A stretch of 64,000 bases of DNA from Octopus vulgaris (lineage: Eukaryota), in the NCBI GenBank assembly GCA_951406725.2, contig OX597820.1:28768001-28832000 (forward strand), in the 5' to 3' direction. A model generated the notes under the pieces. The model was not told the DNA's origin and made no database searches. It was given only the letters and a program-made list of their open reading frames with translations. Of the stretch, positions 3,868 through 62,412 are shown piece after piece. How positions within the stretch are numbered: position 1 is the first letter of the stretch; the number at the start of each line of letters is the position of its first letter. The position numbers were made by a program, and so were the translations under genes.

Positions 3868-5266
3868 TGCTAAAATTACAATGTTCCTAGAAGAAAATGT
3901 CCTACTAAACAATATACAGCATGGCTTCCTTCCAGGAAGAAGCTCCCTCATACGGCTACTCCGTATGACTGGGTTTTGAAACGGCTGCTTGACCATTCAG
4001 ATGTCAGCGTGATATATCTTGAGTTTGCAAAGGCATTTGATAAATAAGATCACAGCATGAAACGTCATCAGCTATGAGAGCTGGTGGCATTGCTGGCAAA
4101 CTGGGAGACTGGCTGCATGTCTTCCTTAAAGACAGAAGTTAGGTAGTTATAGCCAATTGTGCCCTTTCTGAGGATACCCAAATCCTAAGTAGCGTCCGCC
4201 AGGGGACCGTTCTGGGGCCATTACTGTTCATAATAGCCCACTTAGACATGCCGATCGGACAGCCACTGTTACTAGCCATGACGATGATACAAAATTATTA
4301 CAAGCAATGAAAAATCAAGATGACGTCGCAAGCTTACAGCGGGACCTGAATTTGATGTACAAGTAAGCCGAAATAAACAGCATGCAGTTTAACGCTGGGA
4401 AATTTCAAGCATTGCACTATTAACTCACGAATGCAGTACAGCCTGCATATTCAAGACTCGAAGACACTACAATCCCAGAGTCATAAGCATTAAGACATTT
4501 GGGGATCAATATGTGCAATGGTTCATCATTCTATATATGCACATTACCAAAATAGCAACAAAGTGCAGACAACTGGCAAGATGAATGCTGAAGTCCTTCA
4601 AGATAAGAGACCAAGAATCTAAGTTGACCCTGTGAAGACACTTTCTTCTCATCCGCCTGGACTACTGCTACCAAGTATGGCCCCACATTATGCCAAACTA
4701 ACAGTGGAGCTTGAAGCAGTCCAGCGCCACTAAATTAAAAAAGAAAACGGAAATAGTGCAGCGGGTGAGTTAAAGGGATAGGCTGAGAAAACTGCAACTT
4801 TACTCCCTGGAGCGAAGGCGCGACAGATACGCAATAATTTACATATGGATAACTCTAGAGGGGCTGGTACCTAACGTTGGCATTGAGTGTTATACAAACG
4901 CCAGAACTGGCCGCCATTGTATTATACCAAAGGTACCATCCGCTCCATCTAAATTGAGGACCAGGCACTGCAATAGCCTAGAGTTCAAAGGCCCACAGCT
5001 TTTCAATGCCCTACTACAAACATTTTTAGAAACTGCATAAGGTTGAAGAAGATGTCTTCAAAATGGAACTAGATATCCTTCTCTCCACAATACCGGATGA
5101 ACCAACAGCTCGACATGAGGTGCAAACGAAAGCGGCGGAATCGAACTCCCTTATACGCCAAATGGGTGAACAGCTGCGACAAAGGCACATACAGGAATGG
5201 TGATGTGAAATACTCCAGACTGAGGAAATCAAAAAGACCACGGTAGTGCTCCAGCATGGCCGCAGT
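3868..5266 (+). mobile_element. 5'-truncated decayed CR1-group LINE (reverse transcriptase plus 3' end)
   Basis: RT motifs QHGFLPGRS, VIYLEFAKAFDK, SVRQGTVLGPLLF, SHDDDTK (YADD site), MQFNAGKF and C-terminal LYSLERRRDR, with many stops and frameshifts. Confidence 0.9.
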
Positions 5267-12201: not shown

Positions 12202-12582
12202 AAGGCGGAGAGATGGTAGAAACTTTAGCACACCGGACGAAATGCTTAGCGGTATTCCGTCTGCTGTTACGTTCTGAGTTCAAATTCCGCCGAGGTCGAC
12301 TTTGCCTTTCATCCTTTCGGGGTCGATTAAATAAGTACCAGTTACGCACTGGGGTCGATATAATCGACTTAATCCCTTTGTCTGTCCTTGTTTGTCCTCT
12401 TTGTGTTTAGCCCCTTCTGGGTAGTAAAGAAATAGGTATTCCGTCTGTCTTTACGTCCTGAGTTCAAATTCCACCGAGGTCAACTTTACCATTCATCCTT
12501 TCGGGGTTCGATAAATTAAGTACCATTTCCGTATTTGGAGTCCATCTAATATCGTACCTTGTGCCTGGAGTAGAAAAGAATA
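12202..12582 (+). mobile_element. SINE-A two-unit array (tail-1 unit plus tail-2 unit)
   Basis: The 184-bp units both start GGTATTCCGTCTG (12251 and 12435). Confidence 0.9.
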
Positions 12583-18262: not shown

Positions 18263-18850
18263 AAAGCAGGAAGCTGACAGAATCGTAAGCACGCCGGATA
18301 AAAAATGCTTACCAGTATTTCGTCTGCCGCTACGTTCTGAGTTCAAATTCCGCCGAGGTCGACTTTACTTTTCATCCTTACGAGGTCGATTAAAGAAGTA
18401 CCAGTTACGCACTGGGGTCGATATAATCGACTTAATCCGTTTGTCTGTCCTTGTTTGTCCTTTCTATGTTTAGCCCCTTGTGGGTAGTAAGGAAATAGGT
18501 ATTTCCTCTGCCGCTACGTTCTGAATTCAAATTCCGCCGAGGTCGACTTTGCTTTCATCCTTTCGGGGTCGATAAATTAAGTTCAAATTATGCACTGGGG
18601 TCAGTGTCATCGACTTAATCCGTTTGTCTGTCCTTGTTTGTCCTTTCTGTGTTTAGCTCCTTGTGGGTAGTAAAGAAATAGGTATTTCCTCTGCCATTAT
18701 TTTATAAGTTCAAATTCCACCGATGTTTACTTTTCCTTTTACCCTTTCGGGGTCGATAAATTAAGTACCAGTATAACACTGGGGTCAATGTAATCGACTA
18801 CTCCCCACGACAATTAAACTTTAGGCCTTGTGCCTATAATAGAAAAGGGT
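18263..18850 (+). mobile_element. SINE-A three-unit array (tail 1, tail 1, tail 2)
   Basis: Period is ~183 bp; units 2 and 3 both start GGTATTTCCTCTGCC (18498 and 18681). Confidence 0.9.
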
Positions 18851-32256: not shown

Positions 32257-32542
32257 CTTTCTTTATTGGTCACACAGGGCTGGACACGGAGGGGACAATT
32301 ACAAATGTAGAGCTTTTCTTTTCGGAGGTGGAAAAAAAGAAAAAAAGGAAACAAATGTAAAAATTCGATCAAAAGGGATCGGAAGAAAAAAGAGCGATCA
32401 AAAGGGATCGTGTATCACAGAAAAGAAAAAAAAATTTTTCAAAGTAACAAACAAGAATAGGTTCAACCGTGGACAGAAAAGCCTACAGAAAAGACCATGG
32501 TAACCTCAGACAGGGAGGAAAAAAAACACATGAGAGCAAAGT

Positions 32543-33904: not shown

Positions 33905-34505
33905 CTATTTCTTTACTACCCACAAGGTGCTAAACACAGAGAGGATAAACAAGGACAGACAAACGGAGTAATTCGATTACATAGACCCCAGTGCATAACT
34001 GGTACGTAATTTATCGACCCCGAAAGGATGAAAGGCAAAGTCGACCTCGGCGGAATTTGAACTCAGAACGTAACGGCAAACAAAATATCTATTTCTTTAC
34101 TACCCACAAGGGGCTAAACACAGAAGGAACAAATAAGGACAGACAAACGGATTAAGTCGATTACACCGACCCCAGTGCAAAACTGGTACTTAATTTATCG
34201 ACCCCGAAAGGATGAAAGGCAAAGTCGACTTCGGGGGAATTTGAACTCAGAACGTAACGGCAAACAAAATACCTATTTCTTTACTACCCATGAGGGGCTA
34301 AACACAGAGAGGACAAACAAGGACAGACAAACGGATTAAGTCGATTATATCGACCCCAGTGCGTAACTGGTACTTAATTTATCGACCCCGAAAGGATGAA
34401 AGGCAAAGTCGACTTCGAGGGAATTTGAACTCAGAACGTAACGGCAAACAAAATACCGCTAAGCATTTCGACCGGCGTGCTATCATACCTGCCAGCTCGC
34501 CGCCT
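33905..34505 (-). mobile_element. SINE-A three-unit array (all tail 1)
   Basis: Period is ~184 bp and all units share the variant TATTTTGTTTGCC. TTTGTCACACCTATT is directly repeated on both flanks (~33895 and ~34510). Confidence 0.9.
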
Positions 34506-35077
34506 TTGTTTTGTCACACCTATTCCCATTGAAAATCCGAACCATAAACACTATACTTCAGCATCGAATGACAACTACGGCTGAGGTGTCAGTTTTCATG
34601 ATGGACGTTTTGAACTTGTTGGTCGAAACCGGTTCAATGCAATCAGAACGAATGCAATTGCTAGTTGAGTCGGTGGTGGTAAAAGAGAGAACGAAATTTA
34701 ATCTAAGATATGTATTTCTTCAACTGAGAACAATACCGCAATATGGCGGTTTCTCTATTTCCGGGCCAACGTCAAAGGAACCAGGTGGCAGTGTTAATTT
34801 TAAACCAGCAAACATATTACAAGATATTTTAACCTTTATAAATACTTAACATTAATGAAATAATTTTCCACATCTTTTCCATTGATTTCTATGCATTTGT
34901 TTGTTCGGTACGTTTTTGCTATTATTTCCAAGTTTTTTGGTAGAAAGTTTATTTGTATCATAACGCTTATATTTTCATTGTCTTTCTATATATCTTTCCT
35001 TACATATATGCATGTATGCGTATCCAGGTGTGTGAGTACATATTATATACATGTATATGTACGTATATATGTATATA

Positions 35078-40764: not shown

Positions 40765-41161
40765 GAAGGGCTACACACAGAGGGGACAAACAAGTACAGA
40801 CAAACTTATTAAGTAGATTATATCCACTCCAGTACTCAACTGGTACTTATTTAATCGACCCCGAAAGGATGAAAGGCAATGTCGACCTCGGCGGAATTTG
40901 AAATCAGGACGTAACGGCAGTCGAAATACCTATTTCTTTACTACTCACAAGGGGCTAAACACAGAGAGGACAAACAAGGACAGACAAACGGATTGAGTCG
41001 ATTATATCGACCCCAGTGCGTAACTGGTACTTATTTAATCGACCCCGAAAGGATGAGAGGCAAAGTCCACCTCGGCGGAATTTGAACTCAAGACGTAGCG
41101 GCAGCCGAAATACCGCTAAGCATTTCGCCTAGCGTGCTAACGATTCTGCCACCTCGCCGCC
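40765..41161 (-). mobile_element. SINE-A two-unit array
   Basis: Minus-strand junction GTAAAGAAATA|GGTATTTCGACTGCC near 40930. Confidence 0.9.
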
Positions 41162-41179
41162 AAATAACAATAATAATAA

Positions 41180-41580
41180 TATTCCTTTCTACTAAAGGTA
41201 CAAGGCCTGAAATTTTGAGGGACGGGGCCAGTCGATTAGATCGAGCCCAGTACGCGACTGGTACTTAATTTATCGACCCCCAAAGGATGAAAGGCAAAGT
41301 TGACCTCAGCAGAATTTGAACTCAAAACGTAAATACAGACGAAATACCTATTTCTTTACTACCCACAAGGTGTTAAATACAGAGAGGACAAACAAGGACA
41401 GACAAACGGATGAAGTCGATTGTATCGACTCCAGTTCGTAACTGGTACTTATTTCACCGATCCCCAAAGGATGAAAGGCAAAGTCAACCTCGGCGGAATT
41501 TGAACTTAGAACGTAGCGGTAGACGAAATACGGCTACGCATTTCGCCCGGCGTGCTAACGTTTCTGCCAGCTCGCCGCCT
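41180..41580 (-). mobile_element. SINE-A two-unit array (tail-1 unit plus tail-2 unit)
   Basis: Minus-strand junction GTAAAGAAATA|GGTATTTCGTCTG near 41348. Confidence 0.9.
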
Positions 41581-41606
41581 AATAGCAATAATAATGATGA
41601 TGATGG

Positions 41607-45547: not shown

Positions 45548-46180
45548 AATGTATCATGAGATACAAATAAGGTAATACTTTCTTTTCAAACTAATAATAG
45601 GAGCACTTCGTCGGTTACGACGGTCCCAGCTGATACGATCAACGGAACAGCTTGCTCGTGGAATTAACGTGCAAGTGGCTGAGCATTCCACAGACACGTG
45701 TACCCTTAACGTAGTTCTCGAGGAGATTCAGCGTGACACAGAGTGTGACAAGTCTGGCCCTTTGAAATACAGGTACAACAGAAACAGGAAGAAAGAGTGA
45801 GAGAAAGTTGTGGTGAAAGAGTACAGCAGGGATCACCACCATCCCCTGCCGGAGCCTCGTGGAGCTTTCAGGTGTTTTCGCTCAATAAACACTCACAACG
45901 CCCGGTCTGGGAATCGAAACCGCGATCCTACGACTGCGAGTCCGCTGCCCTAACCACTGGGCCATTGCGCCTCCTTTCTTTTCAAACACACAAACGCTGA
46001 TAGAACACCCGAGATAGGATAAAATATCCTTATGAAGCGGGAAAATGTCAGCAACCAGTTACATGCCTTGCTGCTGACATATTTTTCCGCTTGGATATTT
46101 TATCCTGCCTTGCTCTTGTAGCAGATTTTGTGCGTTTGGAAATATATTATTATATTATTTGTATCTCGCAATACACATTT
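45548..46180. mobile_element. Palindromic MITE-like element, left arm split by a SINE-B
   Basis: Nested inverted pairs GAGATACAAATAA/TTATTTGTATCTC, AGGATAAAATATCC/GGATATTTTATCCT and AAGCGGGAAAATGTCAGC/GCTGACATATTTTTCCGCTT. Confidence 0.7.
45592..45974 (-). mobile_element. SINE-B1 full-length
   Basis: tRNA-like head; TSD TTTCTTTTCAAAC at 45579-45591 and 45975-45987. Confidence 0.92.
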
Positions 46181-46401: not shown

Positions 46402-46783
46402 TGGAGGTGCAATGGCCCAGTGGTTAGGGCAGCGGTCATAGTATCGTGGTTTCGATTCCCAGACCGGGCGTTGTGAGTGTTTATTGAGCGAAAACACCTA
46501 AAAGCTCCACGAGGCTCCGGCAGGGGATGGTGGTGATTCCCGCTGTACTCTTTCACCACAACTTTCTCTCACTCTTACTTCCTGTTTCTTTTGTACCTGT
46601 ATTTCAAAGGGCCGGCCTTGTCACTCTCTGTGTCACGCTGAATATCCCCGAGAACTACATTAAGGGTGCACATGTCTGCGGAGTGCTCAGCCACTTACAC
46701 GTTAATTTCACGAGCAGGCTGTTCCGTTGATTCGGATCAACCGGAACCCTCATCGTCGTAACCGACGGAGTGCTTCCAAAGAA
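46402..46783 (+). mobile_element. SINE-B1 near full-length
   Basis: A box TGGCCCAGTGG and B box GGTTTCGATTCCC; candidate TSD ACTAATATAT at 46391-46400 and 46784-46793. Confidence 0.92.
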
Positions 46784-51670: not shown

Positions 51671-53277
51671 CGCAACTACAGCTAGTAGATGTAGTTCTCT
51701 ATTGTGGGATAGTAATTATCTCAGCGCACATGATTTACGTACATTTCCTCAAACGTGAGTTGAATGTATTATTTTGATTCATTCAACTTTTTAAATGTTA
51801 GCTCAACTGAGATTGATCGTTTCATAGTCTAATATGTTTTGTTTCAAATACTAAAATGTTTCGTTTCAAATCCTGCAGGGTAGAGAGAAAGTGACGTACA
51901 AAACGCCATGAAGTATTTAGCTGCGCCCCTTAATGTTCTTAGTTCAAATCCAATCAGGATCGACTTTACCTTTCGCAGAATGAAGATAAAATATAGCACG
52001 GCTCAAGTGATGTATCAATATTATCAGGTAGATTCATTCTGCTCAATGTGTGCTCTCGTGCCAATGTTAAAAATTAATAACTAGAAAAAGAAAAAGAAGA
52101 ATTGGATTCAACTCGGATCTTTCTCTTTTGACCTACATATTTAAAAAATAATTTCGGGAATTTCAACCAATCAATGACGTGTAGTCAAAAAGTAAAGATC
52201 CTTTAACTCAAACATTATATTATATAAAAACTGACCATGATGTTTCGTCAGTGTGTAGGTAATCTAAAAGTTCTGTCAGGCAACGCCCGTGCATTTATGT
52301 GTACAGTCATGACTCTGTTGTTAAGGTGGTCGCAGTGATATCAAACCTGCAGATCCAGGTTCTGTCTCACTCCACAGCAACATACACAGGGGTCAATCTT
52401 CTATAATAAACTCACATCGAACACAAACCATCTAACTTCACATTGTAGACGGAAGCTAAGTGGAAACTTTTCGAGTGAACAGCATCTGTTCTTCGATGGT
52501 AAGCATAATCTGTCACTTGGTTTTTGCGTATCTTAGTATTTAACTTCCTTTCTGACTTCTACCAGTATCAAATACTATTGAATAAAATTGTGCACACTAA
52601 TCTACCACCTCTAAATAACATCGCAAGTTGAAGTACACGTCTTTAATAAGGCCGGTGAGAAGCGTATGTTGTTCCCTTGAATGGTCAATGGGAAGATGAT
52701 CACATCGCTCCGATATGTAGTCTTTAACACATGTTTATGAAGACATTTGTCTCTCAGAAGAAACCACAGCATCATATATTTCAATGGTGTTTACTCGTCA
52801 GCTATGACACAAAGATGGCTATTTCAATAGTATGATGTTGCAAAGGCGACGAGCTGGCAGACACGTTAGCACGCCGGGTGAAACGCCTAGCGGTATTTCG
52901 TCTGCCGCTACGTTCTGAGTTCAAATTTTGCCGAGGTCGACTTTCCCTTTCATCCTTTGGAGTCAATAAATTAAGTACCAGTTACGCACTGGGGTCGATG
53001 TAATCGACTTAATCCGTTTGTCTGTCCTTCTTTGTCCCCTCTGTGTTTAGCCTCTTGTGGGTAATAAAGAAATAGAAATAGGTATTTCGTCTGCCGCTAC
53101 GTTCTGAGTTCCAATTCTGCCGAGGTCGACTTTGCCTTTCATCCTTTCGGGGTCGATAAATTAAGTACCAGTTACGCACTGGGGTCGATGTAATCGACTT
53201 AATCCGTTTGTCTGTCCTTGTTTGTCCCCTCTGTGTTTAGCCCCTTGTGGGTAGTAAAGAAATGGGTATTTCATCCG

Positions 53278-54074
53278 CCTGTAGCTTTATCTCCGGCCAC
53301 GAGTTAAGATCGTTTTGCACTTTTCACTTGAAAAGGAAAGTGTGGCTGGAGAAGAGATGCCTGTCGGAGAATGTGTTAAAAAAAAGATGGAAGCATGTTG
53401 CACGAGTGCTGAGCGTGCAAGAAACCATGTGAATAGGCTATAGAAGAAAAGCAAGATATGAAAGAAGAACCAGCGATAGATCGGGGCTTATGGGATCGGA
53501 GCAAGGGTGATCATCACTACATTTGTATCATATTTGTATTGTGTGGAGGCGCAATGGCCCAGTGGTTAGGGCAGCGGACTCGCGGTCGTAGGATCGCGGT
53601 TTCGATTCCCAGACCGGGCGTTGTGAGTGTTTATTGAGCGAAAACACCTAAAGCTCCACGAGGCTCCGGCAGGGGTGGTGGTGATCCCTGCTGTACTCTT
53701 TCACCACAACTTTCTCTCACTCTTACTTCCTGCTTCTGTTGTACCTGTATTTCAAAGGGCCGGCCTTGTCACTCTCTGTGTCACGCTGAATATCCCCGAG
53801 AACTACGTTATGGGTACACGTGTCTGTGGAGTGCTCAGCCACTTACATGTTAATTTCACGAGCAGGCTGTTCCGTTGATTCGAATCAACCGGAACCCTCG
53901 TCGTCGTAACCGACGGAGTGCTTCCATCCATTTGTATTGTGTATTTCATTCGATTCTTATATATTTTATATACTTTTTATTTCCATATTTATGTAATATC
54001 ATAAGGCGTTACTGATCCCAATCAGTTGTTTTGTCCCATTCTTTGTATAGACCCCTGTGGGTAATAAAGAAATT
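53278..54074 (+). mobile_element. L1/Tx1-like LINE 3' end inserted into the SINE-A head with a 13-bp TSD
   Basis: ORF end SFISGHELRSFCTFHLKRKVWLEKRCLSENVLKKRWKHVARVLSVQETM* and tail AGACCCCTGTGGGTAATAAAGAAAT. GGTATTTCATCCG flanks it at 53265-53277 and 54075-54087. Clade assignment is inferred. Confidence 0.65.
53545..53929 (+). mobile_element. SINE-B1 full-length (tRNA-Arg-like head)
   Basis: Head GGAGGCGCAATGGCCCAGTGGTTAGGGCAGCGGACTCGCGGTC...GGTTTCGATTCCC; TSD ATTTGTATTGTGT at 53532-53544 and 53930-53942. Confidence 0.93.
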
Positions 54075-54986
54075 GGTATTTCATCCGTCTTTATGTTCTG
54101 AGTTCAAATTCCGCCGAGGTTGACTTTGCCTTTCATCCTTTCTGGGTCCATAAATTAAGTATCAGTTGCGTACTAGATTCGATCAAATCAGCTGGCACCC
54201 TCCCCCAAAATTTCAAGCTTTGTGCCTAGAGTAGGAAAAGAATATTATGATGTTTCAATCGCACCAATATTTCTCTTGTCTTTCCGGTTGTTGATATTAC
54301 CTGTTGGTTACCACTTCTGACACAAAGTTATCACGCAATTTTGTTTGTTGTTCTTGTTTTGTTTTTTGTTTTGTTTTGTAAGGTGGGGTTGCTTTTTGTT
54401 TATGGCGTGTTTTTCTTAGGTGGAGATGGCTGGCAGGAAGCAAGAATGAACTCACAACGTACAAAACCCAATCTTTTGTCACTTCCTTCCATTCCATTGT
54501 CTGTTCCCGGTACTTTATTTAATGATTTCAAATAAAAGAAAAACAATACATTCCTCAGTGGCATTTGGACTCAGAGGATTGGAAAAAATAATGTTTTATG
54601 TGTTCTGACGTTCAAAAGACTCTGTCGCAGTTCGCCACTTGAGATTAAACAAAACAAAAAGGCCATACATATAAAATGACTATTTTGGTTCTCGTTATAA
54701 TATGCGAAAGTTACTTTGAGCAATATCCTTCATAAAAAATCTATTTTGTTTTCCAAGACTTTCACATCGTATGAGAAAATGATAAATAGATATTGATTTA
54801 CCATAGTTATTTCATTAATAGATGTATTAGAGATGGCGGCGGCTGACATTTAATTTGACAACATTAGTTATTCTGGACTTAGAATAGCCTCGGATTTAGG
54901 CTCAAGAACAGCAATTATAAGAAGGCCGATACTATCGATCCCAGTACTTTACCTTATCTACACCGGAGCAATTCAGAACGTAAATA

Positions 54987-55821: not shown

Positions 55822-56410
55822 TTATTTCTTTATTGCCCACAGGGGGCTAAAATAGAGGGGCAAACAAGGACAGACAAACGGATTAAGGTCGATTACATCG
55901 ACCCCGGTGCATAACAGGTACTTATTCAATCGACCCCGAAAAGATGAAAGCAAAGTCGACTGCGGGGGAATTTGAACTCAGAACATAGCGGCAGACGAAA
56001 TACCTACTTCTCTACTACCCACAAGGGGCTAAACACAGAAGGGACAAACAAGGACAGACAAACGGATTAAGTCGATTATATACGTAACTGGTACTTATTT
56101 AATCGACCCCGAAAGGATGAAAGGCAAAGTTGACCTCGGCGGAATTTGAACTCAGAACGTAGTGGCAGACGAGATACCTATTTCTTTACTACCCACAAGG
56201 GGCTAAACACAGAGAGGACAAAGAAGGACAGACAAACAGATTAAGTCGAGTACATCGACCCCAGTGCGTAACTGGTACTCATTTAATCGAACCCGAAAGG
56301 ATGAAAGGCAAAATCGACCTCGGCGGAATTTGAACTCAGAACGTAGCGGCAGACGAAATACCGCTAGATATTTCGCCCGGCGTGCTAACGAATCTGCCAG
56401 ATCGCCGCCC
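55822..56410 (-). mobile_element. SINE-A three-unit array (all tail 1)
   Basis: Minus-strand junctions GAAATA|GGTATCTCGTCTG (~56178) and GAAGTA|GGTATTTCGTCTG (~56004). Confidence 0.9.
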
Positions 56411-57473
56411 TCTACTTCTCAACTTATAATGTCGTCATTTGAGAAATGAAAGTCAAAGTCTATTCCAATGGGATTTGAACCCAGAGCCAAAGAAGATAAT
56501 TGCTAATTGCTTTAGATAATTAATGATCATTTGTCGCTCTTCTGGGTTCAGCATTCTGACCACTTTCTCTATAAATATACATTAATATCGTATAATTGAT
56601 ATGTCAGATAAATTATCGACTATTTTACGTAGAATTATGAGTGGATATTATATTTAGTAACGTGCTTCCTCTGATCCGCTACTCCGGGAACACCATTATT
56701 CTCTGAAAGGAAATATTAAACTCCTTTATTTTCTTTAGTTATTTTTTTTATTGTTACACAGATAAGAGTCAGTGGGAAATTTAACACAGTATTATATCCA
56801 GCGGATGTGATAATATAATTTTATCCATAACCGCTTAAAACCAAAGAAACGTGTAGGCTGCAATTGATCGCAATAAATAAAGCGATTTGTTAAAATTGTT
56901 TTTCATATTGTATTACTTACAAAGATTAACAAAAATATGATGAAATTTTGTTTTTTCGTCATTCTCAAGACTATATATTAAATAAATTGTTTATTTATTA
57001 CAATATTGATATATTTTTTTTTCATATACGAAATTCTCAATATACCCATTTATATAATATTTCAGATAAATAAAGGTACACCACATGTCAAAATAATGGC
57101 ATGGCAGATTCAAAGTTTATATCTCAATAGACGAAGATTAAACATCTCTTTTCTCCGGTGCCTTTTATTCTGAGTGCTGTGGGGAAGATGTTAGAAATAG
57201 AGGATAGATGACATCGGCAAGTTTTCTGTAAGTATATGATGACATACGTGCATAGATACACACTTACATACATATATACATGCATATTAATATTAATGTT
57301 TCGCTTAAGGAAGGTGAGACGGTGTTAGAATTCAATACCCATATGCTTCAGAGGAAAGCGTTAGTCGAATACTAAGCGTAAAAAGAGATTATATAAAGAA
57401 AAGGAACAATATATTATGTAATGAACTTTATTACAAAAGTTCTCGTTGCCTTGTCAATTGTATAATCTCAAAC

Positions 57474-62065: not shown

Positions 62066-62412
62066 GGTACTACGTCGGTTACGACGCCGAAGGTTCCAGT
62101 TGGTCCAATCAACGGAGCATCTTGCTCGTGAAATTAACGTGCATTCCACAGACACGTGTTCTCGAGGAGATCCAGTGTGATGCAGAGTGTGACAAGGCTG
62201 GTCCTTTGAAATACAGGTACAACGGAAAGAGGAAAAAGAGTGAAAGTTGTGGGGAAAGAGTACACCACAGTTCGCCACCACCCTCTGCCGGAGCTTCGTG
62301 GAGCTTTAAGTGTTTTCGCTCATTAGACACTCACAAAACCCGATCTGGAAATCGAAACCGCGATTCTATGACCGCGAGTTCACTGCTCGAACAACTGGGC
62401 CATTGCGCATCC
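62066..62412 (-). mobile_element. SINE-B1 (diverged)
   Basis: Homologous to 45592-45974. Confidence 0.85.

Follow-up and report, generated by a model that had tools for sequence, protein, structure and literature searches.

Copies of a LINE in the Octopus vulgaris genome end at one fixed position, base 49|50, inside the head of the SINE-A family, and many tail-1 copies of SINE-A join their own relatives at the same base. Judging from the sequences of these junctions, we give a probability of about 0.65 to the reading that an APE-type LINE and the tail-1 SINE-A would both enter this site by way of a sequence-specific endonuclease, and that the incoming SINE would overwrite the head of its target. 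The window, that is the whole stretch of DNA that was analysed, comprises 64,000 nucleotides of contig OX597820.1 (positions 28,768,001 to 28,832,000, assembly GCA_951406725.2), and all the coordinates given for it in an initial annotation were found to be correct.

SINE-A elements are short, dispersed, present in high copy number and flanked by duplications, and they carry a tail of ~47 bp that can be aligned to LINE tails. The genome holds 62,185 exact tail-1 ends. The head contains what we take to be A- and B-box-like motifs, recognized by eye against the usual box consensus. In the search for a tRNA in the SINE-A head, ARAGORN and Rfam gave 0 matches each and a regular expression for the boxes gave no match in the window copy. 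The octopus SINEs OK, OR1 and OR2 have been described (Ohshima and Okada 1994), and OR1 and OR2 are termed CORE-SINEs in PMC4758252 and PMC4824008.

As had been proposed, all seven SINE-A arrays of the window (7/7) are made of one head followed by units of ~184 bp joined at tail-1|GGTATTTC, and the four said to end in tail 2, at 12202, 18263, 41180 and 52843, do so (Table 1). The insert at 53278-54074 is indeed flanked by a 13-bp duplication, GGTATTTCATCCG, at 53265-53277 and 54075-54087. At two positions its left and right copies differ in the same way from the family majority. The 13-mer of the site occurred 17 times at <=1 mismatch, versus 0.24 expected. The whole composite lies inside an older 18-bp duplication. 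SINE-B, a second tRNA-like SINE, has further copies in the window (45602-45974, 46403-46778 and 62069-62412), and tail-1 ends joined to the SINE-B start were seen in the loose-end tables from runs of related organisms.

Table 1. Parts of the composite element at 52826-54258 and the six other SINE-A arrays of the window.
Feature	Position	Strand	Remarks
Old outer target duplication, left copy	52826..52843	+	AATAT-type, as for tail-2 SINEs; brackets whole composite
SINE-A head, bases 1-49, upstream of target site	52843..52891	+	
Tail-1 unit 1	52892..53080	+	SINE bases 50-233 plus 7-bp AGAAATA repeat
Tail-1 unit 2	53081..53264	+	
LINE left 13-bp target-site duplication	53265..53277	+	GGTATTTCATCCG
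5'-truncated LINE, ORF2 end and 3' UTR start	53278..53544	+	81% to positions 4484-4732 of full-length copy
SINE-B, unrelated, later insertion in LINE	53545..53929	+	13-bp duplication ATTTGTATTGTGT at 53532-53544 and 53930-53942; other copies in window
LINE 3' UTR	53930..54074	+	Final ~45 bp (54030-54074) form the tail in common with SINE tail 1 (84%)
Rest of original target	54075..54240	+	Right 13-bp duplication (54075-54087), tail-2-type body (TCTTTA at bases 63-68), tail 2
Old outer target duplication, right copy	54241..54258	+	16/18 identical to 52826-52843
Array: head, tail-1 unit, tail-2 unit	12202..12581	+	GGTATTCC starts both units
Array: head, 2 tail-1 units, tail-2 unit	18263..18845	+	
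Array: head, 3 tail-1 units	33907..34506	-	Duplication AGGTGTGACAAA brackets array
Array: head, 2 tail-1 units	40768..41163	-	Directly behind tail 2 of 41173-41581 array
Array: G45/C50 head, tail-1 unit, tail-2 unit	41173..41581	-	
Array: head, 3 tail-1 units	55823..56411	-	

The insert at 53278-54074 is the 5'-truncated end of an APE-RT LINE of ~5.3 kb that is L1/Tx1-like. A query from inside the insert gave 337 candidates in the 2.8-Gb genome, of which 40 were scored. The copies have a common 3' end, a 5' extension of variable length up to about 5.2 kb and a target-site duplication, and no LTR. Pieces of the element match RVT_1, zf-RVT, Exo_endo_phos and zf-CCHC (a CCHC knuckle), and a younger subfamily has an intact ORF2 of 1134 aa with all three domains; at L364:2344-5745, Exo_endo_phos, RVT_1 and zf-RVT are above the cut-off and zf-CCHC is found in an upstream ORF1 piece. 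The doubt that the element might not be a LINE is removed by the presence of APE, RT, zf-RVT and the CCHC knuckle. The best matches in PDB were to L1 ORF2p (1e-27), ahead of R2; among named homologs, an Argonauta protein comes nearest, and look-ups in the ESM Atlas and of protein clusters returned no clade name. In a quick RT tree, from which two short RT rows were dropped, the LINE, its (ATT)n sister and the Argonauta protein form a clade with a support of 99, within an unresolved group of 45 rows that includes a TX1-named coral protein. The LINE is likely a member of the Tx1 clade, and it displays the Tx1-type trait of sequence-specific insertion in a multicopy target in 56/58 copies; site specificity was taken as over 20% by Kojima 2015 (PMC4494074). 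The SINE-targeting LINE family includes at least three types of 5' UTR/ORF1 (L019, L022, L034 and L050 versus L032 and L033 versus L364), and five tandem 78-bp tail-only repeats are located directly upstream of a full-length LINE at L050:2732-3111.

The 3' end was found at SINE-A base 49|50 in 56 of the 58 LINE copies inspected, and the remaining two had lost their 3' end. The claim that a site-specific LINE targets the SINE is therefore borne out, the tabulated 3' flanks being fixed and not random. Older copies, for which the query lay inside the LINE, had AATAAAGAAATT|GGTATTTCGTCTG or a close variant at their end (38/40). The same 3' junction was present in 4/4 further copies and in 14/14 young copies, one of which retains only 15 bp of the site before other sequence. 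A pattern built on the LINE end gave 745 matches, mostly SINE tails; it was discarded as a count of LINEs, since only 6 of 30 loci contained one. On the 5' side of the older copies (n=31), the site was found in 11, a partial head in 1 and no head in 19; those headless ends could be explained by later deletions, as many internal ones are seen in old copies. A SINE head precedes the LINE in 15/15 young full-length copies, the target head and the 13-bp duplication being kept. At these loci the head is diverged by 5-8%, like other heads, versus 0.6% for the LINE 5' UTR, which shows that the head is target DNA; for the same reason the possibility that it was the young LINE's own 5' end was rejected. 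Two young loci carry a variant inside the 13 bp on both sides, as in the window. The heads at young LINEs are all of the G45/C50 variant (15/15), which represents 36/129 tail-1 heads (28%, p=5e-9). Base 50 is a G at 24/27 older LINE junctions and at 135/136 tail-1 SINE junctions.

The count of tail-1 ends at the site, recommended as a check, gave 26,048 exact ends followed by AGGTATTT out of 62,185. In 664 kb of unselected DNA, 45/86 tail-1 ends joined the body at base 50, or 20/60 once one 26-unit array is set aside, where chance would give 8.6e-5 per insertion. No such junction was observed for tail-2 ends (0/79), which are sometimes followed by a full head instead. Double-head junctions, in which the site is followed by a new head, numbered 43 as exact matches; at the loci inspected, 20/20 had full-length tail-1 SINEs behind the site, 19 of them continuing into the body at base 50. 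The proposal that the tail-1 SINE re-inserts into its own copies holds as far as the site is concerned, but only about 33-42% of the insertions are site-specific, and over half of the tail-1 copies landed elsewhere. The copies elsewhere are real insertions: duplications were present in 32/47 tail-1 monomers versus 1.5% in the control, mostly of 14-17 bp and often starting with GGT, TAT or AGA.

Tail-1 and tail-1-like ends were also met at other places. A second insertion site lies at head base ~17 (AGAAACGTTAG) and was used mostly by GGGCAAT tails (L007, L008, L020, L034, L048, L144, L153); this second tail variant favours base 17 in 4/17 cases versus 0/50 for GGGTAGT. Four off-target tail-1 copies (L055, L057, L059, L060) landed in one and the same different repeat (GGTACTGGCAATG.., GGTATCAGCCAC..), which may serve as a secondary target. 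A short element has a tail-1-like end after AAAAGCTCTACCTTGTAAT, mostly followed by (TATC)n (L107, L108, L119, L126, L178, and the window near 32258-32298), and is possibly a microsatellite-targeted passenger. At L167 and L168, another tail-1-like tail is followed by (TTG)n.

Neighbouring units of an array were each other's closest unit in only 7/59 pairs, which argues that the arrays are mostly not duplications; the initial annotation had held that units always closest to their neighbours over their full length would speak for simple tandem duplication. The median identity of neighbours was 0.912 versus 0.892 for random pairs, and 17/317 rare body variants were common to neighbours (control mean 5). 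Two arrays are exceptions. In the 26-unit SINE-A array L139 (G000:C22:10.03 Mb), left out of most statistics, neighbours had 122/165 rare body variants in common, and the units of L144 are 97-100% identical; L139 is a SINE-derived minisatellite grown by duplication. Growth of the arrays by retrotransposition, as had been suggested, agrees with the 52/59 neighbours that are not nearest, but not with L139 and L144, the only arrays in which neighbours share variants through duplication as in squamate sSats.

In the tail-1/tail-2 arrays, the body turns to the tail-2 type right after the junction. The tail-2 unit was more diverged than the preceding tail-1 unit in 25/28 pairs (0.092 versus 0.049), in support of the idea that a tail-2 SINE was the original target; about half of these loci had been selected for one downstream variant, an effect too small to produce 0.049 versus 0.092. 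No linkage between the tail-2 and tail-1 units was detected across loci (Mantel p=0.23), nor any age polarity in tail-1/tail-1 pairs (34 versus 21, p=0.15), and the first and last units of an array were correlated in age (rho 0.35, p=0.01).

The single head of the ordinary arrays is of the young incoming type and not that of the target. Heads of tail-2-ended arrays belong to the young tail-1 type over their full length, and 11/35 carry G45 versus 0/19 tail-2 monomers (p=0.005). A simple model for ordinary SINE arrays, in which the target head is kept and the 13 bp are duplicated, failed a targeted test: the downstream 13-bp variant was also present upstream in 1/25 cases versus 2/29 at a control position, after exclusion of loci in which the upstream or the downstream unit was incomplete (5/30 and 1/30). 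The 13 bp between SINE units are usually not a copy of the target. In unselected pairs, variants of the 13-bp site were shared above background (8/22, or 4/7 without CpG sites and near-identical pairs); these figures conflict with the targeted 1/25, and the outcomes are thus mixed. Tail-2-ended arrays were bracketed by AATAT-type outer duplications in 24/29 cases. The wear of these duplications was 0.117 for tail-2-ended arrays, 0.130 for tail-2 monomers and 0.069 for tail-1 monomers (p=0.034, one of five comparisons, low-complexity flanks dropped). Young-type heads within outer duplications that have decayed as far as the ones around tail-2 monomers lead us to prefer replacement of the head in place to retrotransposition of a whole dimer, at p=0.034 only; some tail-2 monomers are young (2-5%), so that transposition of a whole dimer from tail 2 was possible. 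The contigs of orthologous flanks from four runs of related organisms run into the head and break inside the SINE.

Those heads and outer duplications bear directly on the rival reading that we take most seriously, although we consider it unlikely. It supposes that double-head loci were seeded by site-specific insertion, that Pol III transcripts start at the inner head and span every unit, and that retrotransposition from the last tail carries the entire multimer to new places, the single-head arrays being composite SINEs and not local insertions. Young-type heads are predicted and explained equally well, as are the 13-bp sites that are not shared, the correlated ages of the units and the duplications around whole arrays (18/26 and 24/29); the majority unit is free of any run of four T, and the 43 exact double-head loci are rare compared with 26,048 junctions. 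Multimers moved as a whole do not sit well, however, with outer duplications of tail-2-ended arrays that look old, with tail-2 units as diverged as matched monomers (0.090 versus 0.088) or with the lack of common masters among these units (minimum pairwise distance 0.078); about 10 true cases, too few to decide, included no multimer that was convincingly 5'-truncated and enclosed by a duplication spanning it. Double heads exist, and it could be argued that they are the first product of insertion and are afterwards reduced to one head when a deletion joins the two direct repeats of 62 bp, which would also remove the copy of bases 50-62 that belongs to the target. We find this very improbable, since the 5' part of the head should then be old, whereas bases 4-19 are of the young type too (0.068 versus 0.129), and since the collapse would have to be nearly complete while the 184-bp repeats persist.

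Tandem duplication or unequal crossover would make the arrays SINE-derived satellites, the LINE merely liking the same site. Squamate sSats offer a precedent: in them a portion of a SINE is repeated in tandem, and duplication and recombination are given as the main causes (PMC10702118). L139 (122/165), L144 (97-100%) and the 7/59 closest neighbours can be read in this way. As a general account it has little to commend it, because 52/59 neighbours are not nearest, the junction has a fixed position and only tail 1 forms it (0/79 for tail-2 ends) and the tail-1/tail-2 hybrids change subfamily right at the junction. Duplication is refuted as the main route and stands for roughly a tenth of the junctions; unlike the sSats, only a minority of the octopus arrays, such as L139, fit it. 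There is next to no chance that the LINE lacks site specificity and carries the SINE body and tail along as a 3' transduction. The 19/31 older copies without an upstream head would be expected from it, but a duplication spanning the 5' end and the downstream SINE end was seen in 0/21 headless copies, the downstream bodies differ between loci, and the target heads kept by young copies (15/15) refute it.

Under the preferred reading of a shared site and an overwritten head, a sequence-specific endonuclease would nick SINE-A at 49|50 and prime reverse transcription there. The bottom strand would be cut opposite 49|50 and the top strand probably about 13 nt downstream, the RT would presumably be recruited by the ~45-nt RNA tail, and the primer may base-pair with read-through GGTAT.. 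sequence. The C50 bias of the young LINE could come from a preference of the enzyme or from pairing with the read-through RNA. Since the LINE cDNA would have no upstream homology, the target head would stay in place; a full-length SINE cDNA, homologous to the target head, would anneal to it and replace it, giving a head, a new unit and the old body. Each round of insertion would add 184 bp, and a minority of arrays would then expand by ordinary duplication. Only tentatively can one go further and imagine a closed homing loop, in which a SINE with the LINE site in its own head homes into older relatives, overwrites their decayed promoter with a fresh one and renews both its own expression and the supply of LINE targets, LINE and SINE chasing each other in sequence (G50 joins, then spread of the G45/C50 SINE, then the youngest LINE only in C50 heads).

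The usual targets of site-specific LINEs are host genes, microsatellites or transposons of another kind. In the octopus genome it is the passenger SINE that serves as target, and the result can be read from tens of thousands of junctions. The system offers a route by retrotransposition from dispersed SINEs to tandem arrays; it also documents in vivo a homology-directed joining of 5' ends, a step of LINE integration that is not yet settled. The closest known case is that of the crocodilian Tx1-Mar LINEs and their SINEU passengers, whose common target is Mariner-N4_AMi (Kojima 2015, PMC4494074): LINE and SINE share a multicopy transposon as target, and the specificity of the SINE can be weaker than that of the LINE (90% for SINEU-3, 23% for SINEU-1 and 13% for SINEU-2). 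The same text puts tandem SINEU-3 copies down to sequential insertion and reports two preferred sites within one target. The octopus system differs in that the target is no third element but comes from the same family as the passenger, the site lies within the head and divides it, each array keeps a single head and the young LINE is specific for one variant. Other APE LINEs specific for multicopy targets are Tx1L in Tx1D (Xenopus), Keno (U2) and the microsatellite-specific Kibi and Koshi, and no SINE is named among the Tx1-type targets summarised in PMC4494074, supplements and Repbase aside. No description of a self-targeting SINE/LINE system was found in the literature, Repbase, subscription journals and supplements aside. 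That cDNA may anneal to the target upstream of the site has a precedent in the melanogaster-type R1 of Drosophila, an APE LINE with a 14-bp duplication, for which upstream rDNA on the RNA was proposed to anneal to the target and give precise 5' junctions (Stage and Eickbush 2009, PMC2718515). R1 belongs to the R1 clade, targets rDNA and uses 6-27 nt of homology, whereas the octopus element is non-autonomous and its 62 nt of homology are its own promoter region.

The SINE had been thought to have captured the tail of the LINE that targets it, which is not borne out, tail 1 being closer to that of a sister LINE (score 70) than to that of the targeting LINE (46-58). The final base is T in the targeting LINE and A in the SINE. 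An exact tail-1 end was looked for in LINEs and not found, and a pattern made of a sister-type tail with AGGTAT behind it matched 14 times. Tail-1 ends at the targets of two sister LINEs were 0 for the Z site and 1 for (ATT)n out of 364 cases, so these two are not shown as carriers of tail 1. Folding of the tails was weak (z 0.0 to -1.8, sister +1.05) and gave no sign of a common structure. The donor and the mobiliser of tail 1 may differ, or may be an unsampled sister. Several sister LINEs have the tail motif in common and have other targets, and tail 1 is perhaps carried by more than one of them, which would explain why half or more of its copies lie elsewhere.

The (ATT)n sister LINE has 58% ORF2 identity to the SINE-targeting LINE and is intact and young, with an ORF2 of 1145 aa (L342:506-5997). 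It is stacked head to tail with a period of ~5.87 kb (G000:C4:93.80-93.84 Mb, also contigs C47, C50 and C1:202.3 Mb), like Kibi and Koshi. A third intact family (1132 aa, L380:2345-5740; L369-L379, L401-L420) is 73% identical to the SINE-targeting LINE and has several recurrent landing sites (ACATGGAGG.., GATACTCAAAAAC.., TGTTCGTCTTCG..); the best alignment of tail 1 was to a copy of this family, yet its cut site is that of the SINE-targeting LINE. Intact related endonucleases with different targets (SINE G50, SINE C50, (ATT)n and others) make the determinants of specificity mappable, with a bearing on tools for site-specific gene insertion, and the three sister LINEs, 58-73% identical, would, if the reading is true, be a natural series of switched endonuclease specificity. 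The commonest landing site of the third family looks, by eye, like an ORF1-derived element, and one copy of this family, L416, had landed near base 28 of a SINE-A head.
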